Shown: positions 17,246-53,311, counted from the first letter of the stretch. The stretch is 55,688 bases of DNA from Kineosporiaceae bacterium (GCA_035541595.1 DATKNA010000146.1:1-55688), one strand, 5' to 3'. Numbers and translations: made by a program. The notes: a model not told the origin generated them from the letters alone.

Positions 17246-17296
17246 CGATGACGATCGGGTCGGCGTCCCGGTGGACCGGTGGACCGGCGCGGTGCG

Positions 17297-25449: not shown

Positions 25450-25490
25450 ACCCTGATCGCACCCTGAGCGGCCCTGGCCGGCGACCCTGA
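25450..25490. promoter_or_regulatory. Four phased ACCCTGA-like heptamers in the divergent PspC/LiaF - PspC-kinase intergenic region (candidate response-regulator operator)
   Basis: ACCCTGA at 25450, 25461 and 25484, and GCCCTGG at 25471. Spacing is 10-13 bp. Confidence 0.35.
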
Positions 25491-25563
25491 ATCCCGCCCG
25501 GGTCTTCCCTGGTCCTGCCGGCGCACCGGCGTCACTGTCGGGGGGGCGAGTCATGATGGGGAG

Positions 25564-26955
25564 GTGGCGACGACGAGCGGGCAGCGGGCGCGGGGGCAGC
25601 CGGCCGCGCATGCTCGCGTGGGCTGGAGCCCCACGCCGGTCCGGCCGGTACCGGGCCCCGTCCGCCCGCCGCTCGTGCGGCCCAGCTCGGGCCGGGTGAT
25701 CGCGGGTGTGGCCGCCGGTGTCGCGGCCCACGTCGGGCTGCCGGTGCGGATCGTGCGCTTGCTGTTCGTCGTGGCGGCTCTGTTCGGTGGCGCCGGAGCC
25801 GTGCTCTACCTGTGGCTGTGGGCGCTGGCACCCTCGGGTGAGGCCCCGGCCGTCGCCGGCGGGCCTGCGGCGACCTCCGGGGGGCCGCGCACGGGCGTCC
25901 CGCCTCCGTCGACGGCGGCCGGAGCGTCGCGGCCCGTGGCGGGCGGGCCGACCGGCCCGCCGCAGGCCGGCCGGGTGGCCGACCTCGTCGTCGGTGGGCT
26001 CCTGCTGCTTGCCGGCGGAGCCCTCCTGGGCGACCGGTTCGGTTACGACGTGTCGCTGTCGTTCGTGCTGCCCGTCCTCGTCGTCCTCGGCGGCGCCCTG
26101 CTCGCCTACACCCAGCTCGACGAGGTGGAGCGCTCCCGCTGGAACGCCCTGGCCGGTGGGGGCGGCCCACGCGGCGCGGTCCTGCGGGTCGCCGCGGGTC
26201 TCCTGCTCGTGCTGATCGGGGTCGTGCTCGTCGTCGTCCAGGGGGACCTGGCGTCGGCCGGGCGTGTCCTCGTCGCCGCGGTGGCTGTCCTGGCCGGGGC
26301 GATCGTGGTCCTGGCGCCGTGGGGGGTGCGGCTGTGGCGCGACCTGGACGCCGAACGCGCCGCCCGGGCGCGCGAGGTCGAGCGGGCCGAGATCGCCGCG
26401 CACCTGCACGACTCGGTGCTGCAGACGCTCGCGCTGATCCAGCGCCGCAGCGACGACCCTGGGCAGGTCGCCCGGCTGGCCCGGGCCCAGGAGCGGGACC
26501 TGCGGTCATGGCTCTACGGCGGCGATCCGGCCGACGCCGGCACCGTGGCGGCGCAGGTGAAGGCCGCCGCGGCCGAGGTCGAGGACCGTCATGGCGCGTC
26601 GATCGACGTCGTCGTCGTCGGGGACGTCCCCGCGGACGAGCGGACGGCCGCCCTGACCGCAGCTCTGCGGGAGGCGATGGTCAACGCCGTCAAGCACGGT
26701 CAGCCGGGCCCTGGCTCGCCCGTCCAGGTCTACGTGGAGGCCGGTGCCGACGGCGTCGAGGCCTTCGTCCGCGATCGTGGGCCGGGCTTCGACCCCGACG
26801 CCGTCCCGGGTGATCGGGTCGGCGTCCGCGAATCGATCGTCGGGCGGACGGAGCGGCACGGCGGAACGGCGACGATCAAGAGCGTACCGGGCGAGGGGAC
26901 CGAGGTGCGGCTGCGGATGCCCCCGGCTGCGGAGACGACGGGAGCCACCGCATGA
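25564..26955 (+). CDS. PspC-domain sensor histidine kinase (HisKA_3/NarX-type)
   Basis: PspC domain RPSSGRVIAGVAAGVAAHVGLPVRIVRLLFVV, TMs, H-box IAAHLHDSVLQTLALI, and an HATPase_c tail. The start could instead be GTG 25618. Confidence 0.85.
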   Translation: MATTSGQRARGQPAAHARVGWSPTPVRPVPGPVRPPLVRPSSGRVIAGVAAGVAAHVGLPVRIVRLLFVVAALFGGAGAVLYLWLWALAPSGEAPAVAGGPAATSGGPRTGVPPPSTAAGASRPVAGGPTGPPQAGRVADLVVGGLLLLAGGALLGDRFGYDVSLSFVLPVLVVLGGALLAYTQLDEVERSRWNALAGGGGPRGAVLRVAAGLLLVLIGVVLVVVQGDLASAGRVLVAAVAVLAGAIVVLAPWGVRLWRDLDAERAARAREVERAEIAAHLHDSVLQTLALIQRRSDDPGQVARLARAQERDLRSWLYGGDPADAGTVAAQVKAAAAEVEDRHGASIDVVVVGDVPADERTAALTAALREAMVNAVKHGQPGPGSPVQVYVEAGADGVEAFVRDRGPGFDPDAVPGDRVGVRESIVGRTERHGGTATIKSVPGEGTEVRLRMPPAAETTGATA

Positions 26956-40174: not shown

Positions 40175-40447
40175 ATGGTGCGCTGGGAGGTCCCACCGGA
40201 ACGGCGGGTGGCTTTCACGCTCGTCCTCGTCGTGCTGGCCCTGTCCGTCGCGGTGACGGTGGTCGTGGACTTCCGTGCCGGCGGCTACGTCCTGGCCGCG
40301 TCGCTGGGCCTCGCCGCGCTGTTCCGGGCGGTGCTCCCGGAGCGGTACTGCCTCGGGCTGCTGGTCCGGACCCGCCGGATGGACGTCACCGCCGCCGTGG
40401 TGCTGGCGGTCGCGGTCGCGGTGCTCGCCGGCATCGTCCCGAACTGA
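40175..40447 (+). CDS. DUF3017-like small membrane protein
   Basis: 90 aa, two TM helices flanking RAVLPERYCLGLLVRTRRMD. Immediately follows purH, as in other actinobacteria. Confidence 0.6.
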   Translation: MVRWEVPPERRVAFTLVLVVLALSVAVTVVVDFRAGGYVLAASLGLAALFRAVLPERYCLGLLVRTRRMDVTAAVVLAVAVAVLAGIVPN

Positions 40448-40462
40448 CCCTTCCTCGTTGGC

Positions 40463-40510
40463 GGCCGCTGCCCGTCGTGCGTCCGGCCCTCGGCCGCTGC
40501 CCGTCGTGCG
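40463..40510. repeat. 19-bp direct repeat (GGCCGCTGCCCGTCGTGCG) x2, 29-bp period
   Basis: Identical copies at 40463-40481 and 40492-40510. Confidence 0.8.
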
Positions 40511-40556
40511 GCCGCTCATCCGGGAGTTCGGCCACCCTTGCGCGCGTTCGGCGACG

Positions 40557-40632
40557 ATGCACCCGTTATGTCGCTCGGGGGCGCCGACCTGTGGTCACAA
40601 CGCGTGCATCGCAGGACGACGCGTGCACGACC
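40557..40632. repeat. Dispersed palindromic intergenic element, copy B (degenerate)
   Basis: ATGCACCCGTTATGTCGCT...GGTCACAACGCGTGCAT...ACGCGTGCACG is colinear with 9341-9416. Confidence 0.55.
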
Positions 40633-40703
40633 GGAGGCGGACGACCGGAGGCGGACGACCGGAGGCGGACGCCCGGGGGGACGACCGGGGGGACGACCGG
40701 AGG
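40627..40703. repeat. Tandem 14/12-bp repeats (ACGACCGGAGGCGG x3, ACG[A/C]CCGGGGGG x2, partial)
   Basis: Units start at 40627, 40641, 40655, 40669, 40681 and 40693. There are four GGAGG motifs. Confidence 0.85.
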
Positions 40704-40799
40704 ATCGGGCCCTCACGCCGACGGCTCGGCGACGGGCTCGCCGACGCGAACTGGCCGACCCAGGGGGTGTCTCGACCACAACGGTCGCGACCTGATGTG

Positions 40800-42029
40800 A
40801 TGACAGTCATGACCGAGTCCCAGCCGCTGGCGCCGCCGGCCGCCGAGCCCGCCGCCCTCACCCTGACGGCGCCCGCGCCGCCGCAGCCCGTCGCCGCGAC
40901 CGCCGCCCCGAAGATGGCGCCGGCCGTGCCGACGGCGGCCCTGCCCGGGCTGGACCAGAAGGTGGACACCTACCTGACGGGCCTGCTCGGCACCTCGACC
41001 AACTCGCCGGACTTCTCAGCGAGGGCCAGTGACGTCCGCACCATGGGCGACGATGAGATCCGCCGTGCCGCGGAGACGAGCAACCGCCTGTTGAAGAGCC
41101 CGGTCAAGGCGCTCCAGGAGGGTGGGCTGTCGGAGGGGTCCAAGGTCGGCGGCACGCTGCTCGAGCTCCGCCGGACCGTGGAGGAGCTCGATCCCAAGGG
41201 TGCGCAGGGCTCGCGCAAGCTGCTCGGGATGATCCCGTTCGGGGACCGGCTCACGGACTACTTCCGCAAGTACCAGAGCGCGCAGGGCCACCTCAATGCG
41301 ATCATGAGCGCGCTCTACGACGGCCAGGACGAGCTACGCCGCGACAACGCCGCCCTGAACCAGGAGAAGCAGCAGCTCTGGGACACGATGGGGCGGCTGA
41401 ACCAGTACATCTACATCGCGGAACGGCTCGACGCGCGGCTGTCGGCGGCCATCGCCGACCTCGACGCCACCGATCCGGAGAAGGCCAGGGCCATGCGCCA
41501 GGACGTGCTCTTCTACGTCCGGCAGAAGCACCAGGACCTGCTGACCCAGCTCGCGGTCTCCATCCAGAACTACCTGGCGATCGACGTCGTGATCAAGAAC
41601 AACATCGAACTCGTCAAGGGCGTCGACCGGGCCACCACCACGACGGTCTCCGCGCTGCGGACCGCTGTCATCGTAGCCCAGGCGCTCAACAACCAGAAGC
41701 TCGTCCTCGACCAGATCACGGCGCTCAACACGACGACGTCCGGCCTCATCCAGCGCACGAGCGAGATGCTGCGGGACAACTCGGTGCGGATCCAGGAGCA
41801 GGCGGCGTCAGCCACCATCGGACTGCCGCAGCTGCAGGCCGCGTTCCAGAACGTCTACCAGACCATGGACGCCATCGATACGTTCAAGGTCCAGGCGCTC
41901 GACAACATGGCGGCGACAGTCGGTGTGCTCGAGAACGAGGTCGCGAAGTCGCAGGAGTACCTCGAGCGGGTGAAGAAGCGCGACGAGCGGCTCGCGAGCG
42001 GCAGCCTCGACATCGGGACCGGACGGTAA
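40800..42029 (+). CDS. telA: TelA-family toxic-anion-resistance protein
   Basis: 409 aa, all-helical. DVRTMGDDEIRRAAETSNRLL..., LLELRRTVEELDP, NAALNQEKQQLW, YLAIDVVIKNNIELVKGV are typical of TelA/YaaN (PF05816-like). Confidence 0.8.
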   Translation: MTVMTESQPLAPPAAEPAALTLTAPAPPQPVAATAAPKMAPAVPTAALPGLDQKVDTYLTGLLGTSTNSPDFSARASDVRTMGDDEIRRAAETSNRLLKSPVKALQEGGLSEGSKVGGTLLELRRTVEELDPKGAQGSRKLLGMIPFGDRLTDYFRKYQSAQGHLNAIMSALYDGQDELRRDNAALNQEKQQLWDTMGRLNQYIYIAERLDARLSAAIADLDATDPEKARAMRQDVLFYVRQKHQDLLTQLAVSIQNYLAIDVVIKNNIELVKGVDRATTTTVSALRTAVIVAQALNNQKLVLDQITALNTTTSGLIQRTSEMLRDNSVRIQEQAASATIGLPQLQAAFQNVYQTMDAIDTFKVQALDNMAATVGVLENEVAKSQEYLERVKKRDERLASGSLDIGTGR

Positions 42030-42037
42030 GGGGAGGC

Positions 42038-42583
42038 GTGCCCTTCTTCAGGGACCTGTTCGACACCCTGGCCGGCCGGCGGCCGGCGGCATCGACCCCC
42101 GAGGTCACGCTGCCACCGGTACCGACCGGGGCGGAGCTGCTGGACAAGATCGCTGGCATCGACGCGGACATCGACGCGAAGGTCGCCCAGGGGCGGGTAC
42201 CCGAGCTCGTCGCGGCCCGGGTGCACCGGATCACGGCGACCGCCCGCGACGCGGTGCCGGGGCTCGACAAGCTGGGCGCCGGCAGCCGCGACGCGCACGC
42301 CGTCATGGCCACCGTGACGAGCTACCTGCCGGAGGCGCTCGACGGCTACCTGCGTCTGCCGCGCGCCTACGCCGACCGCCGTCCCGTCGACGGCGCCAAG
42401 ACGTCGCTGATGGTCCTCGTCGACCAGCTCGACCTGCTCGCCGCCACGATGGACAAGATCCTCGACGCGGTCTACCGCGCCGACGCCGAGGCGTTGGTCG
42501 CCCACGGGCGCTTCCTCGCCGAGAAGTTCGGACACTCCACGCTCGACGGCCTCGACATCAGCGACCCCGGCACCGCCCCGTGA
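42038..42583 (+). CDS. Hypothetical helical protein, TelA-associated (possibly XpaC-like, unverified)
   Basis: 181 aa. GTG start with AGGGGAGG 3 nt upstream, 8 nt after the telA stop. No TM. Family not recognised with certainty. Confidence 0.5.
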   Translation: MPFFRDLFDTLAGRRPAASTPEVTLPPVPTGAELLDKIAGIDADIDAKVAQGRVPELVAARVHRITATARDAVPGLDKLGAGSRDAHAVMATVTSYLPEALDGYLRLPRAYADRRPVDGAKTSLMVLVDQLDLLAATMDKILDAVYRADAEALVAHGRFLAEKFGHSTLDGLDISDPGTAP

Positions 42584-42611
42584 TCGGTCTGGTGATCCGT
42601 GATGAGCCGCG

Positions 42612-44006
42612 ATGAGCGCTGAGGGAAGCCTTGCGGCGGCGCTCGACGCGCTGGTCGCCGCTGGCGTCGAGGCCGGCATCGAGCCCGGGGACGCCCGCGC
42701 CGAGGGCGCCGCGTTCGCCGCCGCGCTGGTCGAGTCGGTGCCCGGAGCGGCCCAGGCCTGGGCCGCCGAGCTCGGCCTGACGGTTCAGGCGTTCTTCGAC
42801 GCCGCCGTCCGGGCCCGGCGCTGGCGCCAGGCGCCCACCGCCCAGCTCGCCGGGCTGGTCGCCGCCGGTTCCACGCACGCGGCCGACTACGCGCGTGCGC
42901 TCGTCGAGGTCGCCTCGGCGGCGTGCGACCTGGGCGAGCCGACGATCACCGCGGTCGCGAACGCCTCCGTGGCCTCCGCGGCCCAGTTGGACGCCGCCGG
43001 CGTCCGGCCGCCCGCGCCGGTCACCGACCCCACGCTGCTGCGCCTCGCCGAGGCCGGCCTCCATCCGCGCCGAGACGGCGCCGACGGCCTCCGGCCCGGT
43101 GTGCAGCCCGCCGGCCGGACGGCGGTGCAGACGGCGGGGGCGACCGAGACCGAGCCGGCGGCACCGGAGAAGACGCTCGAGGAGCTGCTCGCCGAGCTCG
43201 ACGGGCTGACCGGGCTGACCGCCGTCAAGCGTGAGGTGCACCGGCAGGCCCAGCTGTTGCGCGTCGAGCAGCTCCGTACCGCCGCGGGCCTCCGCAGCCC
43301 GACGATCACCCGGCATCTGATCTTCCTGGGCAATCCCGGGACCGGCAAGACCACGGTCGCCCGGCTGGTGGCGGGGATCTATCGTGCGCTCGGCCTGCTG
43401 TCCAAGGGCCAGCTGGTCGAGGTCGACCGGTCCGAGCTCGTCGCGGGCTACCTGGGGCAGACGGCAGTCAAGACGGCCGAGGTCGTGGCGAGGGCCATCG
43501 GCGGGGTCCTGTTCATCGACGAGGCGTACGCGCTCGCGGGCGACCAGTACGGCGAGGAGGCGGTCGACACCCTGGTCAAGGAGATGGAGGACCATCGCGA
43601 CGACCTGGTGGTCGTGGTCGCGGGATACCCCGGGCCGATGGAGCGCTTCATCCGGTCCAATCCGGGGCTGGCCAGCCGGTTCCGGACGACGATCAGTTTC
43701 GCCGACTACACCGACGACGAGCTCGTGCAGATCCTCGTCCGGCTGGCCTCCGACGCCGACTACGCCCCGACGCCGGCGTTCCTCGATCGGTTCCGGGAGA
43801 TCCTGGCGGCGACGCCGCGCGGGGAGGGATTCGGGAACGGACGGTTCGCGCGGAACGTCCTCGAAGCAGCGATCGGACGCCACGCCTGGCGCCTGCGGGA
43901 CGTCGCCGAGCCCACGGTCGAGCAGCTGCGCGAGCTGCTCCCCGAGGATCTCGACGACGAGCCCGCCCAGCAGGAGCCGGACGCGGCGACAGGAGGGGCA
44001 CAGTGA
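42612..44006 (+). CDS. AAA+ ATPase of the CbbX/SpoVK/EccA type with an uncharacterised ~190-aa N-terminal domain
   Basis: LTGLTAVKREVHRQ, Walker A GNPGTGKTT, Walker B VLFIDEAYAL, AGYPGPMERFIRSNPGLASRF. Confidence 0.85.
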   Translation: MSAEGSLAAALDALVAAGVEAGIEPGDARAEGAAFAAALVESVPGAAQAWAAELGLTVQAFFDAAVRARRWRQAPTAQLAGLVAAGSTHAADYARALVEVASAACDLGEPTITAVANASVASAAQLDAAGVRPPAPVTDPTLLRLAEAGLHPRRDGADGLRPGVQPAGRTAVQTAGATETEPAAPEKTLEELLAELDGLTGLTAVKREVHRQAQLLRVEQLRTAAGLRSPTITRHLIFLGNPGTGKTTVARLVAGIYRALGLLSKGQLVEVDRSELVAGYLGQTAVKTAEVVARAIGGVLFIDEAYALAGDQYGEEAVDTLVKEMEDHRDDLVVVVAGYPGPMERFIRSNPGLASRFRTTISFADYTDDELVQILVRLASDADYAPTPAFLDRFREILAATPRGEGFGNGRFARNVLEAAIGRHAWRLRDVAEPTVEQLRELLPEDLDDEPAQQEPDAATGGAQ

Positions 44007-45364
44007 CCCAGACGACCACGGCGGCCGGGCCCGCCCCGGATCATCGCGGCCGGCACGTCGACGCACCTCCTCCGGGCGGCGGGGCGCGGCCGCAGCCGGC
44101 GAGCACACCGGCTCCCGGCCGGCTGCGCGGCCGGGTGCGGTCGGCCTTCCAGGGGACGCCGGGCGCGCTGCGCCTCGCCGCCATCATCGGCGTGCTGGTC
44201 TGCCTGGTGTTCGCGGTGCTCGGCGGGAACGCCTTCAAGGCCCGCGGGGAGGCCCTCGACGAGGCACGCAACAGTGCGGCGCAGCTCGTCCGGGTGCAGC
44301 AGATCGCCACCGACCTGGTCCGCGCCGACTCGCTCGTGACCAATGCCTTCCTCCAGGGAGGGCGCCAGGGCTCCGCCGGCGTTCCCGGCTATCAGGCGGC
44401 CGTCACCGACGCGAGCACGCTGCTCGCCGAAGCGGCCCAGGCCCAGCCGGGCGACGCCCGGGCCCTGGCCGCGGTCAACGACGCCCTGACGAGGTACACG
44501 GCGGCGGTCGCCACCGCCCAGGCCAACAACGCGCAGGGCTACCAGGTGGGTGGGGCCTACCTGCGGCAGGCGTCGGACCTGTTGCGGACGCCGACCTCCA
44601 CCCAGCCGGCGATGCTCCCCACGCTCGAGGCCGTCGTCGACGCCGACGCCCACCGGGTGGACGACGCGTTCACCGCTTTCAACCGGGCGTCGCTGGTGCT
44701 CGCCCTCGCCGGCATCGTCGTGTTCGGCGGCCTGCTCGGCGTCCAGATCTGGCTCGCCCGACGCACACGACGGGTGTTCAACGTGCCGCTGACGTTCGGG
44801 ACAGGTGTCGTGCTCGTCGCGCTCGTCCTCGGCGGATTGGCGATGATCTTCACGCAGTCGTCCGTGGACACGGTCCGCGACACCAACTACGCCGCCACCC
44901 GCGCCCTGTCGCAGGCGCGGATCGCGGCGTTCGACGCGAAGTCGAACGAGAGCCTCTCCCTCGTCGACCAGAGCGCCGCGGGCGATTACGAGAAGCAATA
45001 CCAGAGCCTGGTCGCGACCGCGGACCAGGAACTGGGTGCCGCGAGCAACGCGGGCGCGGGCGACGTGGGCCAGGCGGAGCTCCAGGCATGGACCGACGTC
45101 CATGCCAAGATCCGTGAAGCTGACGCGAAGGGCGATTGGAGCACGGCCGTCGATCGGGCGACCGGCGCGTCGAATGCCACGTTCCAGGCCCTGGATGCGA
45201 AGACCGGGTCTGCTCTGACCAGCGAAGCGAACCAGGTGTCCGACAACCTCGGCTCGCCGCACCTGATCCTGGTGGTCCTCGGGTGGCTGACCCTGCTGCT
45301 CGGCCTCGTCGCCGCGATCTCGGCCTGGCTGGGCGTGGCCCGGCGGTTGGAGGAGTACCGATGA
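44003..45364 (+). CDS. glnX: GlnX-like four-TM membrane protein with two extracytoplasmic helical-bundle domains
   Basis: TMs at about aa 57-76, 232-254, 266-286 and 421-444, separating two ~150-aa helical segments. Its position directly upstream of glnH-pknG matches Rv0412c/GlnX topology. GTGA overlap with the AAA+ gene. Confidence 0.6.
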   Translation: MTQTTTAAGPAPDHRGRHVDAPPPGGGARPQPASTPAPGRLRGRVRSAFQGTPGALRLAAIIGVLVCLVFAVLGGNAFKARGEALDEARNSAAQLVRVQQIATDLVRADSLVTNAFLQGGRQGSAGVPGYQAAVTDASTLLAEAAQAQPGDARALAAVNDALTRYTAAVATAQANNAQGYQVGGAYLRQASDLLRTPTSTQPAMLPTLEAVVDADAHRVDDAFTAFNRASLVLALAGIVVFGGLLGVQIWLARRTRRVFNVPLTFGTGVVLVALVLGGLAMIFTQSSVDTVRDTNYAATRALSQARIAAFDAKSNESLSLVDQSAAGDYEKQYQSLVATADQELGAASNAGAGDVGQAELQAWTDVHAKIREADAKGDWSTAVDRATGASNATFQALDAKTGSALTSEANQVSDNLGSPHLILVVLGWLTLLLGLVAAISAWLGVARRLEEYR

Positions 45365-46371
45365 GACGCCGCGCCCTGGTGCCGATCGTCATCGCGACGC
45401 TCGGTCTCCTCCTGGTTGCCTGCTCCGGTCCGGACCGCACGCCGCAGATCCCGCTCGCGAGCCCGGCACCCGCGGCGTCCGCGGCGAGCGCGCCGGCCGC
45501 GTCGGACTGCACTCCGGCCGCCCGGGCGTCCTATCGACCGCTCGCGAGCCAGCCCCCGCCCCGGGCGATGCCTGACGGCACCCTCATGTCCCAGATCCAG
45601 GAGCGTGGGTACCTGCTGGTCGGCACCTCCTCGGACACCCGCCTGCTCAGCGACCGCAACCCGCTGCTCAACCCCGACGACCCGAAGCTGTACGAGGGGT
45701 TCGACATCGAGATGGCCAGACGCGTCGCCGAAGCGATCTTCGGGGACGACTCGCCCGAGCACCTGCGCTTCCGCGCCATCAGCGCCGCCGACCGCGTGCC
45801 GTTCGTCAACAACGGGGTGGCGAAGGGCGGCGTCGACATGATCGCCCGTGCCATGACGGTCAACTGCCCGCGGTGGAATCAGGTCGACTTCTCCTCGGTC
45901 TACTTCGAGTCGACGCAGCAGGTCCTGGTCCGCAAGGGTGCCAAGGAGACCACCCTCGCGGACCTGGGAAGGGCCAAGAAGAAGGTGTGCGCCACGAACG
46001 GATCGACGAGCATCGCCTCGCTCACCAAGTTCCCGGGCATCCAGCCCGTCGGCGTCAAGTACACGACGGACTGCATGGCACTCTGGCAGCAGGGCGCGGT
46101 GGACGCCATCACCGGCGACGACGCGATCCTGGCAGGACTCACCGCGCAAGACCCCTCGGCCGTCGTGCCAGGTCGGGAGAGCATCGAGAAGGAGCCCTAC
46201 GGCCTCGCGGTCGCGAAGGACCACCCAGAGTTCGCACAGTTCATCAACGGCGTGCTCGAGCAGCTACGCAAGGACGGCGGATGGCAGAAGGCGTACACGA
46301 GCTCCGGCCTCGCGGCCCGCCTGCCGGGCCGGACCCAGCCTCCCGCGGACTTCTCACGGCCCTTGCCATGA
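45361..46371 (+). CDS. glnH: GlnH-like amino-acid (Glu/Asp/Gln) binding lipoprotein
   Basis: ATG 45361 (ATGA overlap). Lipobox LLLVAC. Family-3 SBP body (YLLVGTSSDTRLLSDRN..., GVDMIARAMTV..., DAITGDDAIL). Confidence 0.8.
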   Translation: MRRRALVPIVIATLGLLLVACSGPDRTPQIPLASPAPAASAASAPAASDCTPAARASYRPLASQPPPRAMPDGTLMSQIQERGYLLVGTSSDTRLLSDRNPLLNPDDPKLYEGFDIEMARRVAEAIFGDDSPEHLRFRAISAADRVPFVNNGVAKGGVDMIARAMTVNCPRWNQVDFSSVYFESTQQVLVRKGAKETTLADLGRAKKKVCATNGSTSIASLTKFPGIQPVGVKYTTDCMALWQQGAVDAITGDDAILAGLTAQDPSAVVPGRESIEKEPYGLAVAKDHPEFAQFINGVLEQLRKDGGWQKAYTSSGLAARLPGRTQPPADFSRPLP

Positions 46372-47549
46372 CCGGTCCCGCCACGCTGGCCGTCGCGCCG
46401 GCCGCGCCCGGGCGGTTGGGCGAGCCGCTCGCGGTGGACGCGGCCCGCACCTACCTGCTCGACCTGGGCCGCTGGCGGGACGCCCGCAAACATGAGCTCG
46501 ACCTGCTCGACGAGGCGTCCCTGCGCTCGTCCGACCCCGCCGCCTACACCGGCGACGTGACGCTGTCCATGTCCCTGTGGCAGGCCGTGGACGACCGCTA
46601 CGGCCAGATGCTGACGGTGTGGGACGACGGCCGCGCCGACGCCGTCGCCCGGGACCGGCTCTCCCAGCTCGTCTGGGGCCGGTTGGCGAGCGGCGGCCTC
46701 GGGGTCAACGTCGTCGAGGCCACTCGGCTCTCCGACGCGCTCTCCGCCCAGTTGCGGGCCCGGCTCTCCTTCGATCCGCGGGCCGCGGAGTCGGGCGCAC
46801 GGGTGGCCGCGCTGCGCGCGGCCCTCGAACGGCTCCGCGAGCTCGTCAAGCAGGAGCCCGGCTGGGCTCCGCAGGTCGAACTGCTCGCCACTCGCGTCGA
46901 CGACGTCGCGACCCGGGCGGCCCGCGGCGGCGAGGTCGACGCCGTGCTGACCGGGCTCGAGACCGACGCCGCACGGGCGGAGCGCGACCTCGTCGTCTCG
47001 ACGGCGAGGCGGCGCATCATGGCGCGGGCCGCCGAGCAGGCCGCCGCCGCGCTCGTCACCGACCGGGTGCGGGCCACGAACGAGATCGCGGCGCTGGCGG
47101 CCCGCGAGCAGCAGGCGCGCGAGCTCGTCGCCCGGTGCCGCGCGGTCGTCGCCGACCCGCCCCGGTTCGCCGTTCCGGACGTCGACTCGCTCGGTCCCGT
47201 CCCGCAGGACCGCCAGGCGCTGGACGCCTACCTGCGGCGGCTGGGCGACGTCGCCCGCGCCCTCGGCGTGGTCGAGGCCGCCTACAGCAAGCCGCTCGCC
47301 GAGCTCGACGAGTTGCGCGGCCTGCTGGGCGGCTACCTCACCCGTGCCGCCCGGACCGGCCGCCTCACCGACCCTGGCGTGCAGCGCGCCGCCGCCGCCG
47401 CGCGGTCCGCGCTCGAGGCCGGGCCTGCCCGGCTCGGCGACGTCCGCACCCTGGTGAACCGCTTCACCGAGCTCGTGCGCGCCGGCGCAACGCCGACGAA
47501 TCCTTCGTCGTCGACCCCCTCGACCCTGCCACCAGGAGCTCCGTCATGA
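46368..47549 (+). CDS. Hypothetical cytoplasmic all-alpha (coiled-coil-like) protein
   Basis: 393 aa, Ala/Arg/Leu/Asp-rich but heptad-like. No TM and no recognisable motif. ATGA overlaps at both ends. Confidence 0.6.
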   Translation: MTGPATLAVAPAAPGRLGEPLAVDAARTYLLDLGRWRDARKHELDLLDEASLRSSDPAAYTGDVTLSMSLWQAVDDRYGQMLTVWDDGRADAVARDRLSQLVWGRLASGGLGVNVVEATRLSDALSAQLRARLSFDPRAAESGARVAALRAALERLRELVKQEPGWAPQVELLATRVDDVATRAARGGEVDAVLTGLETDAARAERDLVVSTARRRIMARAAEQAAAALVTDRVRATNEIAALAAREQQARELVARCRAVVADPPRFAVPDVDSLGPVPQDRQALDAYLRRLGDVARALGVVEAAYSKPLAELDELRGLLGGYLTRAARTGRLTDPGVQRAAAAARSALEAGPARLGDVRTLVNRFTELVRAGATPTNPSSSTPSTLPPGAPS

Positions 47550-49834
47550 CCGCCGACCCTGCGCTCGCGGCGCGGCGCTGCGCCGTCCCCGGCTGCCCGG
47601 GCGTCATCGAGGACGGGTACTGCAACGTCTGCGGTACACCGGCCGGAGCCGTCCCGGTCGGGTCCGCCGCCACGGCCGTCCCGGCGCAGTCCAGCCCGTC
47701 GCCGGACGCCGGCGGCTCCGCGGCGACATCGCCCGCCGCGTCCACCCGCTCCAAGCTGACGTCATCCTCCAATCGGCTCGCCAGCACGCCGCTCGGCTCG
47801 ATCCGGACCGGCGGCTCGCGGGCCACCCGCCGGCTCGGCACCTCGTCCACCCGGCTGCGCGGGGCGCGCCTGGGCGCCGGCCTGACGACGATCCCCTCGG
47901 TCCCGCCGATCGACCCGGCGAAGGCCGTCCTGCAGGACCCGCAGGTGCCGGAGGACCGCCGGTTCTGCGCCAAGTGCGGCTCGCCCGTCGGGCGCTCCCG
48001 CGACGGAAGGCCCGGCCGCTCCGAGGGCTTCTGCCCGCAGTGCCGGACGCCGTTCTCCTTCACGCCGAAGCTGAAGCCGGGCGACATCGTCGGGGGTCAG
48101 TACGAGGTCGTCGGCTGCCTCGCGCACGGCGGCCTCGGTTGGATCTACCTGGGCCGGGACACCGTGCTGAGCGGGCGCTGGGTGGTGCTCAAGGGCCTGC
48201 TCAACTCCGGCGACCCGGACGCGTACGCCGCGGCGGTCGCCGAGCGTGAGTTCCTCGCCAAGGTCGAGCACCCGCTCATCGTGGAGATCTTCAACTTCGT
48301 GCTCTACGAGGGCGCCGGCTACATCGTCATGGAGTACGTCGGCGGGACCTCGCTCAAGGCGATCCTCAAGGAGCGGATGATCAAGAACGGCGGCCGGTAC
48401 GACCCGATCCCCGTCGACCAGGCCATCGCCTACATCGTCGAGATCCTGCCCGCGTTCAGCTACCTGCACGACATGAGCCTGCTGTACTGCGACTTCAAGC
48501 CGGACAACATCATCCAGGTCGGCGACGCGGTCAAGCTCATCGACCTCGGCGGCGTCCGGCGGATCGACGACCTGGACTCGCCGATCTACGGCACCGTCGG
48601 CTACCAGGCCCCCGAGGTCCCCGACATCGGCCCGTCGATCGCCTCCGACATCTACACCCTCGGCCGCACCCTCGCCGTGCTGTCGATGGAGTTCCGCGGA
48701 TACCAGTCGACCTACGTCTCCTCGTTGCCACCGGTCGCCGAGTCGCCGCTGTTCCAGCAGTACGACTCGTTCTACCGGCTGCTCGCCAAGGCGTGCGCGA
48801 CGGATCCTGCCGACCGCTTCCAGACGGCGGACGAGCTGCGTGTGCAGCTGCTGGGCGTGCTGCGGGAGATCGTCGCCACCCAGAGCCCCGACGGTGGGCG
48901 CGCCCGGCACTCGGCGGCGTCCGTGCTGTTCGAAGCACCCGTGGTCGAGGCGGACACGATCGACTGGCGGCACCTGCCGGCGCTCAAGGTCGATTCCGGC
49001 GACCCGATGGCGGCCTGGTTGTCCGCGCTCTCCGTGACCGACCCGGTCGACCGGATGAACGCCCTCTACGCGGCGCCCCAGGACACCGTCGAGGTGCGGC
49101 TGGACCTGGCGCGGACGGCGATCGCCGCCGGCCGGCCCGAGGTCGCCGACGGTGCGCTGACCCAGATCCTGCACGACGATCCGTGGGAGTGGCGGGCGGT
49201 CTGGGTGTCCGGACTGTCGGCGCTCGCCGCCGGGGACGACGCGGCGGCCCGCGCCGCCTTCAACGCCGTCTACGGACAGGTGCCGGGCGAGCTCGCACCC
49301 AAGCTGGCGCTGGCGCTGGCCTGCGAGCGGTCCGCGGAGTACGACGTCGCCGAGGCGCTCTACACGGTGTGCGCGCGGACGGATGCGAACTACACCGCGC
49401 CGGCGGCGTTCGGTCTGGCCCGGATCCGGACCACCCGGAAGGATCTCGACGGTGCCCTCGCAGCGCTGGACCTGGTCCCGGCGACGAGCCGCGGCTACGT
49501 CGAGGCGCGGCGGCAGCGGGCCGCCCTGCTCGCGGGATCCGGGCGTGGCCTCGTCGCGCTGTCGGACGCGATGGGCAGTATCGAGTCCGTGACCATCGAC
49601 CCCGTCGACCGCGCCCGCCTGCTGACCGGTGTCCTCGACGCCGCCCTCGACGTCGTGACGACCAAGGGCGCCCAGGAGAAGGTGCTCATCGCCGGTGTGC
49701 CGGCCAAGGAGGCGCCGTTGCGCGACGCGCTCGAGCACGCCTATCGCGACCTCGCCGCCCTCACCCCCGCGGGCGACGAGCGGGTCCGACTCGTCGACCA
49801 GGCGAACTCGGTGCGGCGCTGGACGCTGCGATGA
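47546..49834 (+). CDS. pknG: Serine/threonine protein kinase PknG (extra N-terminal Zn-ribbon, rubredoxin-like module, kinase domain, TPR tail)
   Basis: RRFCAKCGSPVGRS...GFCPQCRTPFSFTPKLKPGDIVGGQYEVVGCLAHGGLGWIYLGRD lines up closely with M. tuberculosis PknG as recalled. YCDFKPDNI, GTVGYQAPE, and a TPR-like C-terminus ending VDQANSVRRWTLR. Confidence 0.9.
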   Translation: MTADPALAARRCAVPGCPGVIEDGYCNVCGTPAGAVPVGSAATAVPAQSSPSPDAGGSAATSPAASTRSKLTSSSNRLASTPLGSIRTGGSRATRRLGTSSTRLRGARLGAGLTTIPSVPPIDPAKAVLQDPQVPEDRRFCAKCGSPVGRSRDGRPGRSEGFCPQCRTPFSFTPKLKPGDIVGGQYEVVGCLAHGGLGWIYLGRDTVLSGRWVVLKGLLNSGDPDAYAAAVAEREFLAKVEHPLIVEIFNFVLYEGAGYIVMEYVGGTSLKAILKERMIKNGGRYDPIPVDQAIAYIVEILPAFSYLHDMSLLYCDFKPDNIIQVGDAVKLIDLGGVRRIDDLDSPIYGTVGYQAPEVPDIGPSIASDIYTLGRTLAVLSMEFRGYQSTYVSSLPPVAESPLFQQYDSFYRLLAKACATDPADRFQTADELRVQLLGVLREIVATQSPDGGRARHSAASVLFEAPVVEADTIDWRHLPALKVDSGDPMAAWLSALSVTDPVDRMNALYAAPQDTVEVRLDLARTAIAAGRPEVADGALTQILHDDPWEWRAVWVSGLSALAAGDDAAARAAFNAVYGQVPGELAPKLALALACERSAEYDVAEALYTVCARTDANYTAPAAFGLARIRTTRKDLDGALAALDLVPATSRGYVEARRQRAALLAGSGRGLVALSDAMGSIESVTIDPVDRARLLTGVLDAALDVVTTKGAQEKVLIAGVPAKEAPLRDALEHAYRDLAALTPAGDERVRLVDQANSVRRWTLR

Positions 49835-50958
49835 TCAGGGATCTCCTGGTGGCCTGCCCGAGCTGCGGTGCGCCCGTCACGGAGGGCGAGCGGTTCTGCG
49901 AGAACTGCGGCGCGGAGCTGGCGTCCGCGCCGGCCCCGCCGGTGGTGCCGGCTGACCCCGTCGGCGCCGTCTCACGGCCGGCCGTGTCCGTCCGGGAGGG
50001 CGTCGCAGTGGCGCCGGTCGACCTCGGCAGGCCCGCGGTCGTCTGCGCGGCCTGCGGTGGAGCCGTGGCGCCCGACGGCTACTGCGAGCAGTGCGGCACG
50101 CCGGCGGTCCGGCCGCGCGACCATTGGATCGATCAGCCGGTGCCCTGGGTCGCGGCCGTCTGCGACCGAGGCGTCCGGCATGCCCGCAACGAGGACGCGG
50201 TGGCGGTCGCGGCGGAGCCCGCGCCCGGCTCCTTCGCGGTCCTCGTCGTGTGCGACGGCGTCTCGTCCGCGCCGGACTCGGACCTGGCCAGTCTCGCGGC
50301 CGCCCGCGCGGCCCGGGACGTGCTCGCCGGCCCCGACCTGACTCCCGCGCCGCAGGCAGCGGACGCCGACGGTGCGGGCCGGATCGCGGACGCCGTCGTC
50401 GGGGCCGGCAGGGCCGCGCACGAGGCCGCGTCCGAGATCGCCAGGAGGGTGGCCGGGCAAGGTCGGGGCAACCCGCCGTCCACGACGTTCGTCGCCGGCG
50501 TGCTGGCGGCCCACCGGCTCGTCGTGGGATGGGTGGGTGACAGCCGTGCCTACTGGCTCCCGGACGCCGGCGAATCCCGGCAGCTCACCACGGACGACTC
50601 GTGGGCCGCCGAGGCGATGGCCCTCGGCGTGAGCCGCGAGGAGGCCGAGAACGGGCCGAACGCGCACGCGATCACCCGGTGGCTCGGCGCCGACGCTCCG
50701 GATCCACGCCCGCACGTCGTCGACACGGTGCTCGACGGCCCAGGCTGGGTCCTGCTCTGCTCCGACGGCCTGTGGAACTACTGCTCGCCGGCCGCGGAGC
50801 TGGGCGGGCTGGTCGCGCGCACCGCCTCGGCGTACGGCGACGCCCACGGCGGGGCCCCGGTGCCGGCCGGCGTCCTGGCCACCGACCTCGTCGCCTGGGC
50901 CGTGGCGCAGGGCGGGGCGGACAACGTCAGCGTGGCCCTGGCCCGTCTGGACAGCTGA
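49831..50958 (+). CDS. PP2C-family Ser/Thr phosphatase with two N-terminal zinc ribbons
   Basis: CPSCGAPVTEGERFCENCG and CAACGGAVAPDGYCEQCG, then PP2C motifs RNEDAVAV, VVCDGVSS, GADNVSVALARL. ATGA overlap with pknG. Confidence 0.85.
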   Translation: MIRDLLVACPSCGAPVTEGERFCENCGAELASAPAPPVVPADPVGAVSRPAVSVREGVAVAPVDLGRPAVVCAACGGAVAPDGYCEQCGTPAVRPRDHWIDQPVPWVAAVCDRGVRHARNEDAVAVAAEPAPGSFAVLVVCDGVSSAPDSDLASLAAARAARDVLAGPDLTPAPQAADADGAGRIADAVVGAGRAAHEAASEIARRVAGQGRGNPPSTTFVAGVLAAHRLVVGWVGDSRAYWLPDAGESRQLTTDDSWAAEAMALGVSREEAENGPNAHAITRWLGADAPDPRPHVVDTVLDGPGWVLLCSDGLWNYCSPAAELGGLVARTASAYGDAHGGAPVPAGVLATDLVAWAVAQGGADNVSVALARLDS

Positions 50959-50982
50959 ACCGAGAACCCGGAGAGGAACCCG

Positions 50983-52263
50983 ATGGCCCAGTTCACCGCC
51001 GAGGTCTACCAGAACGAGTTCCTGCCCCAGGGCGGCACGGACGTGCACGCGATCGTCACCATCACCTGCACCGGTGCCGGCGAGGCCGGCCGCGGCGAGG
51101 GCGGCGACGCCGCCGAGATCGTCATCCTGGACACGTCGGGGTCCATGCAGGGTGAGCGGTTCGCCAACGCCCAGCGGGCCGCCGCCGCCGCGATCGACCA
51201 GATCCTCGACGGCACGTGGTTCGCCGTGATCGCCGGCACCGACCAGGCGGCACGCGTCTTCCCCTATCCCAACGCCGTCTCGCCCATGGTCCGGATGGAG
51301 CCGGCGGCCCGCGAGGAGGCCAAGCGCGCAGTGCGCCAGCTCCTCGCCGGCGGCGGCACCGCGATGGGGACCTGGTTGCGCCTGGCCACCCAGCTCTTCC
51401 TCTCGGTGCCGACCGCGACGCAGCGGCATGCCATCCTGCTCACCGACGGGAAGAACCAGAGCGAGTCGCCGCGCATGCTCCAGGACGCGCTGCGCCAGGC
51501 GCAGGGCGTCTTCCAGTGCGACTGCCGGGGCGTCGGCGCCGACTGGGACGTGCGGGAGCTACGCGGGATCGCGACCGCCCTGCTCGGCACGGTCGATCTC
51601 GTGCCGGCCCCGGCGCAGCTCGCCTCCACCTTCGAGGAGCTGATGCGCAACGCCATGCGCCGGGGCGTGTCGCAGGCGTGGCTGCGGGTGTGGGCACCGC
51701 AGGGCGCGCAGGTGCTGTTCGTGCGGCAGGTCGCGCCGACCGTGGAGGACCTCACCGGCCGCCGGCAGGACGTCAACCCGCTCACCGGGGCCTACCCGAC
51801 CGGGGCGTGGGGCGACGAGACCCGCGACTACCACGTCGCCGTCCGGCTGGCCGCCAAGCCCGTGGGCGCCGAGCAGCTGGCCGCGCGGGTCCAGCTCGTG
51901 GTCGCCGACCAGGTCGTCGCGCAGGGCCTGGTCAAGGCCCTCTGGTCCGACGACGACGCGCTGACGACCCGGATCAGTCCGGCGGTCGCCCACTACACCG
52001 GGCAGGCGGAGCTCGCCCAGGCCATCCAGGAGGGGCTGGAGGCCAAGGCCGCCGGAGACACCGCGACGGCGACCACCAAGCTCGGCCGCGCCGTGCAGTT
52101 GGCCGCGGAGACCGGCAACGACGAGGCGACCTCCCGGCTGCGGAAGGTCGTCGAGATCGACGACCCGGGTACGGGTACCGTGCGTCTGCGCCGCAATGTC
52201 GACAAGCTCGACGAGATGGCGCTCGACACGAGCTCGACCAAGACGACGCGGGTGAAGCGCTGA
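50983..52263 (+). CDS. von Willebrand factor A (TerY-like) domain protein with a ~200-aa C-terminal extension
   Basis: MIDAS DTSGSM, later GGGTAMG and LLTDGKN. GGAGAGGA Shine-Dalgarno upstream. Confidence 0.8.
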   Translation: MAQFTAEVYQNEFLPQGGTDVHAIVTITCTGAGEAGRGEGGDAAEIVILDTSGSMQGERFANAQRAAAAAIDQILDGTWFAVIAGTDQAARVFPYPNAVSPMVRMEPAAREEAKRAVRQLLAGGGTAMGTWLRLATQLFLSVPTATQRHAILLTDGKNQSESPRMLQDALRQAQGVFQCDCRGVGADWDVRELRGIATALLGTVDLVPAPAQLASTFEELMRNAMRRGVSQAWLRVWAPQGAQVLFVRQVAPTVEDLTGRRQDVNPLTGAYPTGAWGDETRDYHVAVRLAAKPVGAEQLAARVQLVVADQVVAQGLVKALWSDDDALTTRISPAVAHYTGQAELAQAIQEGLEAKAAGDTATATTKLGRAVQLAAETGNDEATSRLRKVVEIDDPGTGTVRLRRNVDKLDEMALDTSSTKTTRVKR

Positions 52264-52299
52264 CCCGAGCGGGTCGGCGAGGCGAAAGGGACGGCCGCG

Positions 52300-53082
52300 G
52301 TGGCGACGTACACCTGCCCGGACGGGCATACCTCCCAGTCCGCGGACTACTGCGACGTCTGCGGCCTGCCGATCCGGTCCGGCACGACTCCGGCAGCGGC
52401 CGCCGCGCCGGCCGGTTCGCCGGTCACGCCCCCGCCGTTGCCCGACGCGGGCGGCGGCGCGGTCGCCCACACCTCACCGTTGACGATCGGGCGGGCGGAC
52501 GTCGCCGGCGCGACGGCCGGCGTGCGCTCCTGCCCGAACTGCGGGACCGACAACCCGCCCGGCGCGTTGTTCTGCGAGAACTGCGGCTACGACTTCACCA
52601 CGGGCCAGCTGCCGCAGCCGCTCCCCCCACCGGACGTCGCGGCGGAGCTCGCGGCCGCCCACCCGGTTCCCCCGCCGGCCGCCCCCGACGGCGCCGTCGA
52701 CTGGGTGGCCGAGGTATGGGTGGATCCCGACTGGTACGCGGCGCAGGGCGTCACGGATCAGCTGCCCAGCGTCGGGGCCCCCGTCGTGGTACCGCTCGCC
52801 GAGCGGACGCTGCTCATCGGCCGGACCTCCACCAGCCGCAACATCCATCCGCAGATCGACGTCTCGGGCGACAACGGCGTCTCGCGCCGGCACGCCCAGC
52901 TGACCACGGACGGGCAGCGCTGGTGGATCGAGGACCTGCAGTCCTCCAACGGGACGTTCATCGGCGCCGCCGGCCAGGCCCTCCCGACGACGCCGACCGT
53001 GCCCGGCCAGCGCGTCGAGCTCGCCGAGGACGACCGCGTCTACATCGGCGCCTGGACCCGGATCGTCGTCCGCAAGGCCTGA
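52300..53082 (+). CDS. FHA-domain protein with two N-terminal zinc ribbons
   Basis: CPDGH...YCDVCG and CPNCGTDNPPGALFCENCG. FHA core LLIGR...VSRRHAQL...DLQSSNGTF...RVYIGAWTRIVV. Confidence 0.85.
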   Translation: MATYTCPDGHTSQSADYCDVCGLPIRSGTTPAAAAAPAGSPVTPPPLPDAGGGAVAHTSPLTIGRADVAGATAGVRSCPNCGTDNPPGALFCENCGYDFTTGQLPQPLPPPDVAAELAAAHPVPPPAAPDGAVDWVAEVWVDPDWYAAQGVTDQLPSVGAPVVVPLAERTLLIGRTSTSRNIHPQIDVSGDNGVSRRHAQLTTDGQRWWIEDLQSSNGTFIGAAGQALPTTPTVPGQRVELAEDDRVYIGAWTRIVVRKA

Positions 53083-53110
53083 CGCCCGCGCACCGCCGCC
53101 CCCACGGGCG

Positions 53111-53194
53111 TGATCATGCAATCCCCGCTGATCATGCAATCCGTGTCGATCACGTAGTCGACCGGTTACTTGATCGACACGGATCGCATGATCA
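53111..53194. repeat. Low-GC nested palindrome with three copies of TGATCATGC[A/G]ATCC (two direct, one inverted)
   Basis: 24-bp arms at 53129-53152 and 53171-53194 (1 mismatch) around an 18-nt loop, plus an extra direct copy at 53111-53124. Six GATC sites in 84 bp. Confidence 0.8.
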
Positions 53195-53311
53195 CGGCGA
53201 GGGGGCCGGCGGGAGTCGGCGAGCCCGAGCTCACAGGGCGGGCGGGCCGGACAGGCGATGGACTCGATAGCCTCGAGTCAATCGGCAACCGATCCGAAGG
53301 GGACCCCCGCA

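Follow-up and report, generated by a model that had tools for sequence, protein, structure and literature searches.

The stretch of DNA considered here (55,688 nucleotides from a Kineosporiaceae bacterium, GCA_035541595.1 DATKNA010000146.1:1-55688; hereafter the window) carries ten consecutive genes on the plus strand, which span positions 40800-53082 and encode, in this order, a TelA-family protein, a 181-aa helical protein, an AAA+ ATPase, the membrane protein GlnX, the lipoprotein GlnH, a 393-aa helical protein, the kinase PknG, a PP2C phosphatase, a von Willebrand factor A (vWA) protein, and a zinc-ribbon FHA (ZnR-FHA) protein. PknG is among the most studied bacterial Ser/Thr kinases, with links to tuberculosis virulence and industrial glutamate production, and its pathway is modelled as a line running from GlnH to GlnX, PknG, and finally OdhI. 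Judged from its sequence, the block described here is a conserved composite of this PknG relay and a switch resembling the archaeal ArnB/ArnA pair, with an optional TelA/AAA+ module. The window has a GC content of approximately 72%, and its genes were called from the third-position GC frame plot, the listing of open reading frames (ORFs), and the placement of start codons. From 40.8 to 55.6 kb, the third-position GC plot shows a single plus-strand coding frame at a time, and these frames, the ORF coordinates, and the Pfam matches agree with the ten same-strand genes and the order given by an earlier annotation made from the sequence alone (hereafter the original prediction), every named domain of which was confirmed in the Pfam run. 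Intact motifs can be read for the vWA MIDAS (metal ion-dependent adhesion site), the metal-binding residues of the PP2C, the Walker A and B motifs of the AAA+ protein, the K/D/N/DLG residues of the kinase, and the GR/SxxH/NG residues of the FHA domain.

The evidence that these genes belong together comes from their conservation. Judged by the homologues of its PknG, the window belongs to Kineosporiaceae or a neighbouring group. A scan based on the PknG alignment, with one genome per species, resulted in 80 loci from Kineosporiaceae, Kribbella, Nocardioides/Marmoricola, Propionibacteriaceae, Cellulomonas, Cellulosimicrobium, Oerskovia, Dermatophilaceae/Intrasporangiaceae, and Agreia, which were then searched by tblastn with the ten proteins of the window. 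Of the 57 loci with sufficient flanking sequence, 56 have the complete set of ten in the window's order on a single strand, and the lone exception (L052) contains all of them as fragments. This arrangement is far beyond chance. The same ten-gene layout is found in a 7.3-Mb genome with independent gene calls and precomputed Pfam labels. The flanks differ between families, to the point that essentially no flanking ORF is shared among nine loci drawn from different families, and conservation of the block as a unit, on which the original prediction had depended, is borne out. The median tblastn identities are 76% for TelA (the best-conserved gene of the block, over 66 loci), 71% for the vWA protein, 65% for PknG, 63% for the AAA+ protein, 58% for the 181-aa protein, 52% for both the PP2C and the FHA proteins, 43% for both GlnH and the 393-aa protein, and 38% for GlnX.

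The spacing of the genes is that of an operon. In the window, 4-nt overlaps occur at five consecutive junctions, from the AAA+ gene through glnX, glnH, the gene of the 393-aa protein (h393), and pknG to the PP2C gene, and the remaining four gaps within the block measure 8, 28, 24, and 36 nt. Across the loci, about 85-95% offer a start codon that would overlap with the preceding stop codon by 4 or 1 nt at five junctions, namely those between the 181-aa protein and AAA+ genes, the AAA+ gene and glnX, glnX and glnH, h393 and pknG, and pknG and the PP2C gene. At the junction of the AAA+ gene and glnX, which links the TelA module to the PknG module, 59 of 65 loci allow such an overlap.

More distant lineages were reached by using a reconstructed sequence of the Protein Data Bank (PDB) entry 4FX5 as the query. 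Catenulispora subtropica and an Actinocrinis metagenome-assembled genome (MAG) have the order glnX-glnH-(410-aa helical protein)-pknG-PP2C-vWA-FHA, without TelA and the AAA+ protein. A Pseudonocardiaceae MAG has (434-aa protein)-pknG-PP2C-vWA-FHA, and in Actinophytocola the contig begins at pknG, which is followed by PP2C-vWA-FHA. Nonomuraea gerenzanensis (NZ_LT559118.1) presents (409-aa protein)-pknG-PP2C-vWA-FHA-glnX-glnH, with the sensor pair relocated downstream; this 11.85-Mb record (locus L087) is labelled 'plasmid I' in the plasmid collection and is evidently a chromosome. Because of the forms found in Catenulispora, Actinocrinis, Pseudonocardiaceae, and Nonomuraea, the invariant core is made up of the helical protein, PknG, PP2C, vWA, and FHA, with GlnX and GlnH attached nearly always, and the TelA/181-aa/AAA+ module is an addition in Kineosporiales, Propionibacteriales, and Micrococcales. 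The position of TelA at the head of the block, as originally predicted, therefore holds for the ten-gene loci, but not for Catenulispora, Actinocrinis, and Nonomuraea, where the TelA/AAA+ module is missing beside the cluster. Taken as a whole, this distribution shows that GlnH, GlnX, and PknG are co-inherited, and coupled in translation, with the PP2C, vWA, ZnR-FHA, and 393-aa proteins in at least six actinobacterial orders. In three of these, the coupling extends to TelA, the 181-aa protein, and the AAA+ ATPase.

The orthology of PknG, GlnH, and GlnX with the known relay, already proposed in the original prediction, is sustained by Pfam, NCBIfam, and PDB matches. The gene glnX (44003-45364) encodes a signal-transduction membrane protein with four transmembrane segments, seen as four hydrophobic stretches in the hydropathy scan, which belongs to the GlnX family (NF058618; 285.5 bits in NCBIfam, where the cutoff is 250) and whose orthologues elsewhere bear the Pfam domain Sensor_actino. 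The gene glnH (45361-46371) encodes an extracytoplasmic amino-acid-binding lipoprotein (Pfam SBP_bac_3) having a signal peptide with an LLVAC lipobox, and its best PDB match is GlnH from Mycobacterium tuberculosis (6H2T/6H1U, 2.6e-41). In the M. tuberculosis numbering of the published residue list, this protein keeps the backbone-binding residues S164(T), R169, and D250, plus R147. GlnX and GlnH are the only envelope proteins of the block, the other eight being cytoplasmic according to the hydropathy scan.

PknG itself (47546-49834) matches the Pfam families PknG_rubred, Pkinase, and PknG_TPR (102, 88, and 188 bits, respectively), aligns with residues 108-758 of the M. tuberculosis structure 2PZI (1.6e-134), and has the catalytic K, D, and N residues and the DLG motif. 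Two further features precede these domains: a zinc ribbon (C12-C29) added at the N-terminus, the cysteines of which are invariant in the PknG alignment, and a conserved Ser/Thr-rich segment at about residues 73-117. To our knowledge, PknG from M. tuberculosis has no N-terminal zinc ribbon like this one. In M. tuberculosis and Corynebacterium glutamicum, it is the phosphorylated N-terminus of PknG that brings in the FHA substrates.

Downstream of pknG, the block continues with the genes of a phosphatase, a vWA protein, and a phosphothreonine reader. The PP2C phosphatase (49831-50958; Pfam DZR and PP2C_2) has two N-terminal zinc ribbons, is Stp1-like in NCBIfam, and shows the motifs RxxNED, DG, GDS, SDG, and DN. 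The ArnB-like vWA protein (50983-52263; Pfam VWA_3 and VWA_3_C) is composed of a MIDAS vWA domain, a beta-sandwich, a C-terminal helical domain corresponding to VWA_3_C, and a Thr-rich tail. The DTSGSM motif that had originally been reported is present in its MIDAS (DTSGSM...T...D), in agreement with the Pfam matches, and VWA_3_C, which we take to be the same family as ArnB_C in InterPro, scores 76.9 bits. This protein is homologous over its full length to PDB 4FX5 (Caci_2163; 1.6e-115). Its C-terminal tail, DEMALDT[AS]STKTTR[VI][KR][KR], is nearly invariant among 78 orthologues, and T421 is invariant even in the alignment including the distant orders. The ArnA-like ZnR-FHA protein (52300-53082; Pfam DZR and FHA), the gene of which adjoins that of the vWA protein and commonly overlaps with it across the loci, has two zinc ribbons, one of them a CxxC-x10-CxxC ribbon at residues 78-95, as well as an FHA domain at the C-terminus with the phosphothreonine-binding residues GR, SxxH, and NG. 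Its best PDB matches are ArnA entries (8S05_C, 5A8I), ahead of GarA.

The zinc ribbons are a feature shared by these three proteins. N-terminal ribbons are found in 76 of 76 PknG, 77 of 77 PP2C, and 61 of 64 FHA orthologues, and the knuckles fall into two types: DGYCxxCG, present in PknG, in the second ribbon of the PP2C, and in the first ribbon of the FHA protein, and FCExCG, present in the first ribbon of the PP2C and in the second ribbon of the FHA protein.

The gene h393 (46368-47549), always directly 5' of pknG, encodes an all-helical cytoplasmic protein of 393 aa with no sequence match in Pfam, NCBIfam, or the PDB. AlphaFold2 gives an elongated all-helical model with a predicted local distance difference test (pLDDT) score of 91, for which a Foldseek search against the PDB returned chance-level matches only, none with E<1. 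The family includes 209 clusters at 50% identity with E<1e-30, and remote homologues occupy the same position in Catenulispora, Pseudonocardiaceae, Actinocrinis, and Nonomuraea (E 1e-10 to 1e-18, mainly over the C-terminal 75 residues). Database fusions of this protein with PknG were not counted. One of them (P0224, 640 aa, 3824-7236 of L088), which joins the 393-aa protein to the PknG rubredoxin domain, lies on a contig with fragmented, frameshifted genes and is most likely a frameshift artefact, and the other apparent fusions may be of the same kind.

The three genes at the 5' end of the block encode the proteins of the lineage-restricted module. TelA (40800-42029; 409 aa, cytoplasmic) matches PF05816 over profile positions 14-332 of 332 with 316 bits, has no transmembrane segment, and retrieved no solved structure in a sequence search. 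The 181-aa protein encoded between telA and the AAA+ gene (42038-42583) is present in all the complete loci and has no match in Pfam, NCBIfam, or the PDB; its single-sequence AlphaFold2 model is helical and of low confidence (pLDDT 49). The AAA+ ATPase (42612-44006; Pfam AAA and AAA_lid_6) has intact Walker A (GNPGTGKT) and Walker B (FIDEAY) motifs, preceded by an N-terminal region of about 185 aa without any family match. Even though it finds CbbX (2e-57) and EccA1 (1e-53) in the PDB, it stays below the NCBIfam equivalog cutoffs for SpoVK (256 vs 423 bits), EccA (234 vs 467 bits), and CbbX (214 vs 459 bits), and is a relative of the CbbX/EccA/SpoVK clade belonging to none of these three named families.

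The block is preceded by sucC, sucD, purN, purH, and a DUF3017 gene, and followed by mdh and icd. Genes of the tricarboxylic acid (TCA) cycle had originally been noted on both sides of it, which is correct for mdh and icd, directly downstream, but less so for sucCD, which are split from telA by purN, purH, and the DUF3017 gene. These flanks were rejected as part of the system, since it is only in Kineosporiaceae-like loci that the block is bordered by purH/DUF3017 and mdh/icd. The DUF3017 gene, between purH and telA, encodes a membrane protein of 90 aa (40175-40447), and the order purH-DUF3017-telA also occurs in Kineosporia loci and in one unrelated 7.3-Mb genome. Other window genes are of a housekeeping nature, such as an IMPDH/GMP-reductase-family gene (guaB-like), guaA, a pcrA/uvrD-type helicase gene, sucCD, and purNH, and the window also encodes a histidine kinase with a PspC domain, a sensor of the envelope-stress type, at 25468-26955 and another SBP_bac_3 solute-binding protein at 1441-2604.

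The sole long gap preceding the block is a non-coding leader or promoter region of 352 nt before telA (40448-40799, plus strand). Six tandem copies of GGCGGACGACCGGAGG, with a spacing of 12-14 nt, were found in it at 40622-40703 by repeat analysis, and a 24-nt direct repeat lies at 40462-40514. These leader repeats could be operator or leader elements of the operon. Consensus scans, which are uninformative in DNA of 72% GC, gave no sigma-70-type promoter in the leader and no internal terminator in the block, and Rfam gave no RNA element. On the 3' side of the FHA stop codon, a 28-nt inverted repeat (53129-53194, plus strand, 93% complementary) forms a hairpin, and the RNA fold of 53083-53257 reaches -104.6 kcal/mol (z = -5.9 against shuffled sequences). 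This hairpin is probably the 3' boundary or terminator of the operon, or else a palindromic operator of mdh. The inverted repeat, located between the FHA stop and mdh, is relatively AT-rich.

A further question is how the FHA protein of the cluster relates to OdhI/GarA, the known FHA substrate of PknG. The protein is not OdhI, as it reaches only 28.9 of the 200 bits that the NCBIfam cutoff for this family demands. In one locus from an uncultured member of the Actinomycetota (L062), an OdhI-like gene was found 4.6 kb downstream of the ten-gene cluster, in a gcvH-odhI-ftsR synteny (16321-18046) that is the same as that of the M. tuberculosis garA region. The encoded protein reaches 177.5 bits with the OdhI model and has the N-terminal ESTT motif. 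Since this gene coexists with the cluster, the in-cluster FHA protein would be an additional partner rather than a replacement for OdhI.

A precedent for a vWA protein paired with a zinc-finger FHA protein comes from Archaea. ArnB, which combines a domain of the vWA type, a beta-sandwich, and a bundle of helices at the C-terminus in a tripartite fold (that of ArnB and its paralogue vWA2) shared by 4FX5 with an intact MIDAS, is the partner of ArnA, a protein with a zinc finger and an FHA domain (PMC6509490; PMC12852372). The C-terminal threonines of ArnB, located in ...ETTRR motifs (PMC6509490), are phosphorylated by the kinase ArnC, in which a TPR-like region is present, and PP2A removes the phosphate groups (PMC6509490; PMC12852372). 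The zinc finger of ArnA docks on the beta-sandwich/helical domain of unphosphorylated ArnB, the FHA domain binds after phosphorylation, and in Sulfolobus the whole switch follows the nutrient supply (PMC6509490; PMC12852372).

With this precedent in mind, we favour with moderate confidence a reading in which the block is one operon encoding an extended PknG Ser/Thr system, where PknG and the PP2C switch a complex of the vWA and ZnR-FHA proteins, besides OdhI. According to this model, an amino acid present outside the cell would bind to the lipoprotein GlnH, and GlnX, with its four transmembrane segments, would relay the signal to the TPR domain of PknG. Once active, PknG would phosphorylate its own N-terminal Ser/Thr-rich segment, an OdhI/GarA protein encoded elsewhere, and the tail of the vWA protein (STKTTR, T421). 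The ZnR-FHA protein would then bind the phosphorylated vWA protein through its FHA domain, a step that the dedicated PP2C would reverse, in parallel to ArnC/PP2A and ArnB/ArnA from Sulfolobus, where the ArnB/ArnA complex toggles between a loose and a tight state with the nutrient supply. The paralogous N-terminal zinc ribbons may dock PknG, the PP2C, and the FHA protein on the vWA protein, as the ArnA zinc finger does on ArnB, and kinase, phosphatase, and reader would in that case form a complex with the vWA protein as its hub. A candidate for an adaptor bridging GlnX and PknG is the 393-aa helical protein, whereas TelA, its 181-aa partner, and the AAA+ protein would be lineage-variable accessories that may provide an output close to the membrane or act in assembly or remodelling. 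From this system, Mycobacterium and Corynebacterium would have derived their three-gene operon by reduction.

Several points weigh against this reading. No OdhI/GarA gene was found within the 55.7-kb window, to which the search was confined. The side-chain contacts of GlnH are changed with respect to M. tuberculosis (K161R, T162A, W232T), and the ligand may therefore not be Asp or Glu. Beyond domain identity we infer the steps of the mechanism from sequence, and both the phosphorylation of the vWA tail and the docking through the zinc ribbons are predicted only, by analogy. In three orders, the cluster is not accompanied by the TelA module, the role of which may therefore be separate. The resemblance to the Arn proteins has its own limits, since the phosphatase there is PP2A, from the PPP family, and that of the block is a PP2C, which makes the phosphatase part of the comparison an analogy only. 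Moreover, a profile of 20 vWA orthologues found ArnB in the PDB (8S05_A) only at 4.2e-6 and over the vWA domain only, a match weaker than those of several unrelated vWA proteins in the same search. ArnB is thus reached at the generic vWA level, so that what is claimed here is a resemblance in architecture and fold, not orthology, and the fold argument rests on the published comparison of 4FX5.

The alternatives differ in how they would connect the parts. The vWA, PP2C, and kinase proteins recall the TerY-P triad, which is presented both as a switch in signalling and as a defence system acting on its own, and the kinase of which ends in a fused zinc ribbon or OB fold (PMC10542128). The block might accordingly be a TerY-P-type stress or anti-phage system, that is, a metal- or infection-sensing phospho-switch tied to Ter tellurite/phage resistance, with TelA as the Ter component. 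We consider this very improbable, even though the composition of vWA, PP2C, and Ser/Thr kinase is the same and telA is in the same operon. In PADLOC scans at E<=0.01 and E<=10, the vWA, FHA, and TelA proteins have no match even at the looser threshold, the PP2C has only a weak one (PDC-M21C, E 0.006), and the kinase matches only generic kinase models. PADLOC-DB 2.0 presumably includes TerY-P models, and the triad gives no TerY-P match in this run. The kinase is a bona fide PknG, with the TPR domain at the C-terminus and the zinc ribbon and rubredoxin at the N-terminus, and the vWA protein belongs to the 4FX5/VWA_3_C family. TelA is the only Ter gene, as there are no TerD, TerC, TerB, or TerY_C domains, and the block contains no nuclease or toxin effector. 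Furthermore, the high conservation across orders, the colinearity in 56 of 57 loci, and the housekeeping surroundings in the window do not fit such a system, and neither does the lack of phage matches, together with a single plasmid-collection match that is the 11.85-Mb chromosome. With no TerY-P match in PADLOC, a PknG architecture, and a core chromosomal context, the TerY-P label given in the original prediction was not borne out.

It is also unlikely, albeit less so, that two separate modules simply share a transcript in some lineages, with TelA, the 181-aa protein, and the AAA+ protein forming an envelope/membrane-stress module that has no direct biochemical link with the seven-gene PknG module. 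This would suit Catenulispora, Actinocrinis, and Nonomuraea, which have the PknG module without TelA and the AAA+ protein within 8-12 kb, as well as the presence of TelA-family proteins in many other contexts. However, loci with both modules invariably have them side by side in an unchanged order, despite unrelated flanks, in three orders, and the stop codon of the AAA+ gene overlaps with the start codon of glnX by 4 nt in the window, an overlap available in about 59 of the 65 loci, which points to co-translation and selection for equal dosage. Another possibility, to which we give little credence, is that the PP2C, vWA, and FHA proteins only tune PknG, through a reset of its autophosphorylation, localisation, or feedback, and that OdhI is the sole physiological output. 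The conserved Ser/Thr-rich segment of PknG, the recruitment of FHA substrates by its phosphorylated N-terminus in M. tuberculosis and C. glutamicum, and the coexistence of an OdhI-like gene with the cluster in L062 are all in line with it. Contrary to this, the near-invariant tail and the ArnB/ArnA precedent point to the vWA protein as a substrate itself, and this protein is better conserved than PknG (medians of 71% and 65%, respectively). This explanation is a weaker version of the extended PknG system that we favour. A more ambitious version of that same system would make the vWA protein the hub of a membrane-associated signalosome, with PknG, PP2C, and FHA recruited through their ribbons, a switch based on tail phosphorylation, sensing by GlnH/GlnX, and a non-OdhI output via TelA and the AAA+ protein, for example in membrane or envelope remodelling. 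It would represent a bacterial counterpart, possibly an evolutionary relative, of the Arn network and the ancestral PknG pathway, which Mycobacterium and Corynebacterium would have cut down to three genes, and we put it forward tentatively, as a possibility on the doubtful side.

The published operon of Mycobacterium and Corynebacterium consists of three genes, glnX-glnH-pknG, a point on which the PknG literature agrees with the original prediction. The literature searched treats the operon in this way throughout, and none of it joins PknG with a PP2C and a vWA protein, or with ArnB. Conversely, in the ArnA/ArnB papers 4FX5 figures solely as a structural relative, and PknG does not come up at all (PMC6509490; PMC12852372). 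No publication describing the combined block was found, which supports the original view of an uncharacterised architecture within the literature searched; a 2012 comparative-genomics paper on Ter systems was outside this search, and a prior mention there is possible. If most other Actinomycetia keep pknG with the phosphatase, the vWA/FHA pair, and the helical partner, frequently joined by TelA and the AAA+ ATPase, the textbook pathway would be a reduced form. In that case, PknG would probably have a second, unstudied phospho-target and output, and the 393-aa helical protein would be a new candidate adaptor for the communication between GlnX and PknG. The orphan structural-genomics entry 4FX5 would likewise acquire a functional context, and the archaeal nutrient-responsive phospho-switch would gain a candidate bacterial counterpart.

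Among the known systems, the GlnH-GlnX-PknG-OdhI/GarA pathway of Mycobacterium and Corynebacterium shares with the block the domains of PknG, the GlnX family, the lipoprotein GlnH, and the order glnX-glnH-...-pknG. Contrary to that system, the block has seven further co-conserved genes, including that of the 393-aa protein between glnH and pknG, and three specificity residues of the window GlnH differ from those of M. tuberculosis. TerY-P systems have in common with it the three domain types side by side, with telA nearby, but not the PknG kinase, the 4FX5-type vWA protein, or the core chromosomal context, in place of a mobile one.

Two other bacterial systems bring together similar components. 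The Esr threat-sensing pathways of Actinomycetales combine a MoxR AAA+ protein and a vWA protein with a paired kinase and phosphatase and an FHA output (bioRxiv 2026, PMC13622651). They resemble the block in gathering these elements, often with zinc fingers, in one actinobacterial cluster, and their output is set by threonine phosphorylation of the FHA protein (PMC13622651). In the block, however, the AAA+ protein is of the CbbX/EccA type and not a MoxR, the sensor is GlnH/GlnX, and a surface sensor of the beta-propeller kind, a transglutaminase, and an Esx linkage are all missing. The DRA0331-DRA0334 operon from Deinococcus radiodurans encodes a vWA protein, a Ser/Thr protein kinase, an FHA protein, and a PP2C, for which a kinase/phosphatase push-pull via FHA docking has been proposed (bioRxiv 2026). 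The likeness here is one of domain types, the same four being present in one operon, whereas the kinase is of another type, the PP2C is fused to a KI-FHA domain, and GlnH/GlnX, TelA, the AAA+ protein, and the zinc ribbons are absent there.

The ArnA/ArnB system from Sulfolobus acidocaldarius, despite being archaeal, also pairs a tripartite MIDAS vWA protein with a protein made up of a zinc ribbon and an FHA domain. Both systems include a Thr-rich C-terminus, a kinase that has a TPR-like region, a phosphatase of their own, and a link to nutrients. They differ in that the arn genes do not share an operon with the kinase (ArnC or ArnD), in that ArnA has one zinc finger where the FHA protein of the block has two and the kinase and phosphatase also carry ribbons, and in the output, archaellum expression, which is without a counterpart in the block. 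By analogy, the pair formed by the vWA and ZnR-FHA proteins thus appears closer to the archaeal ArnB/ArnA nutrient-responsive phospho-switch than to TerY-P.

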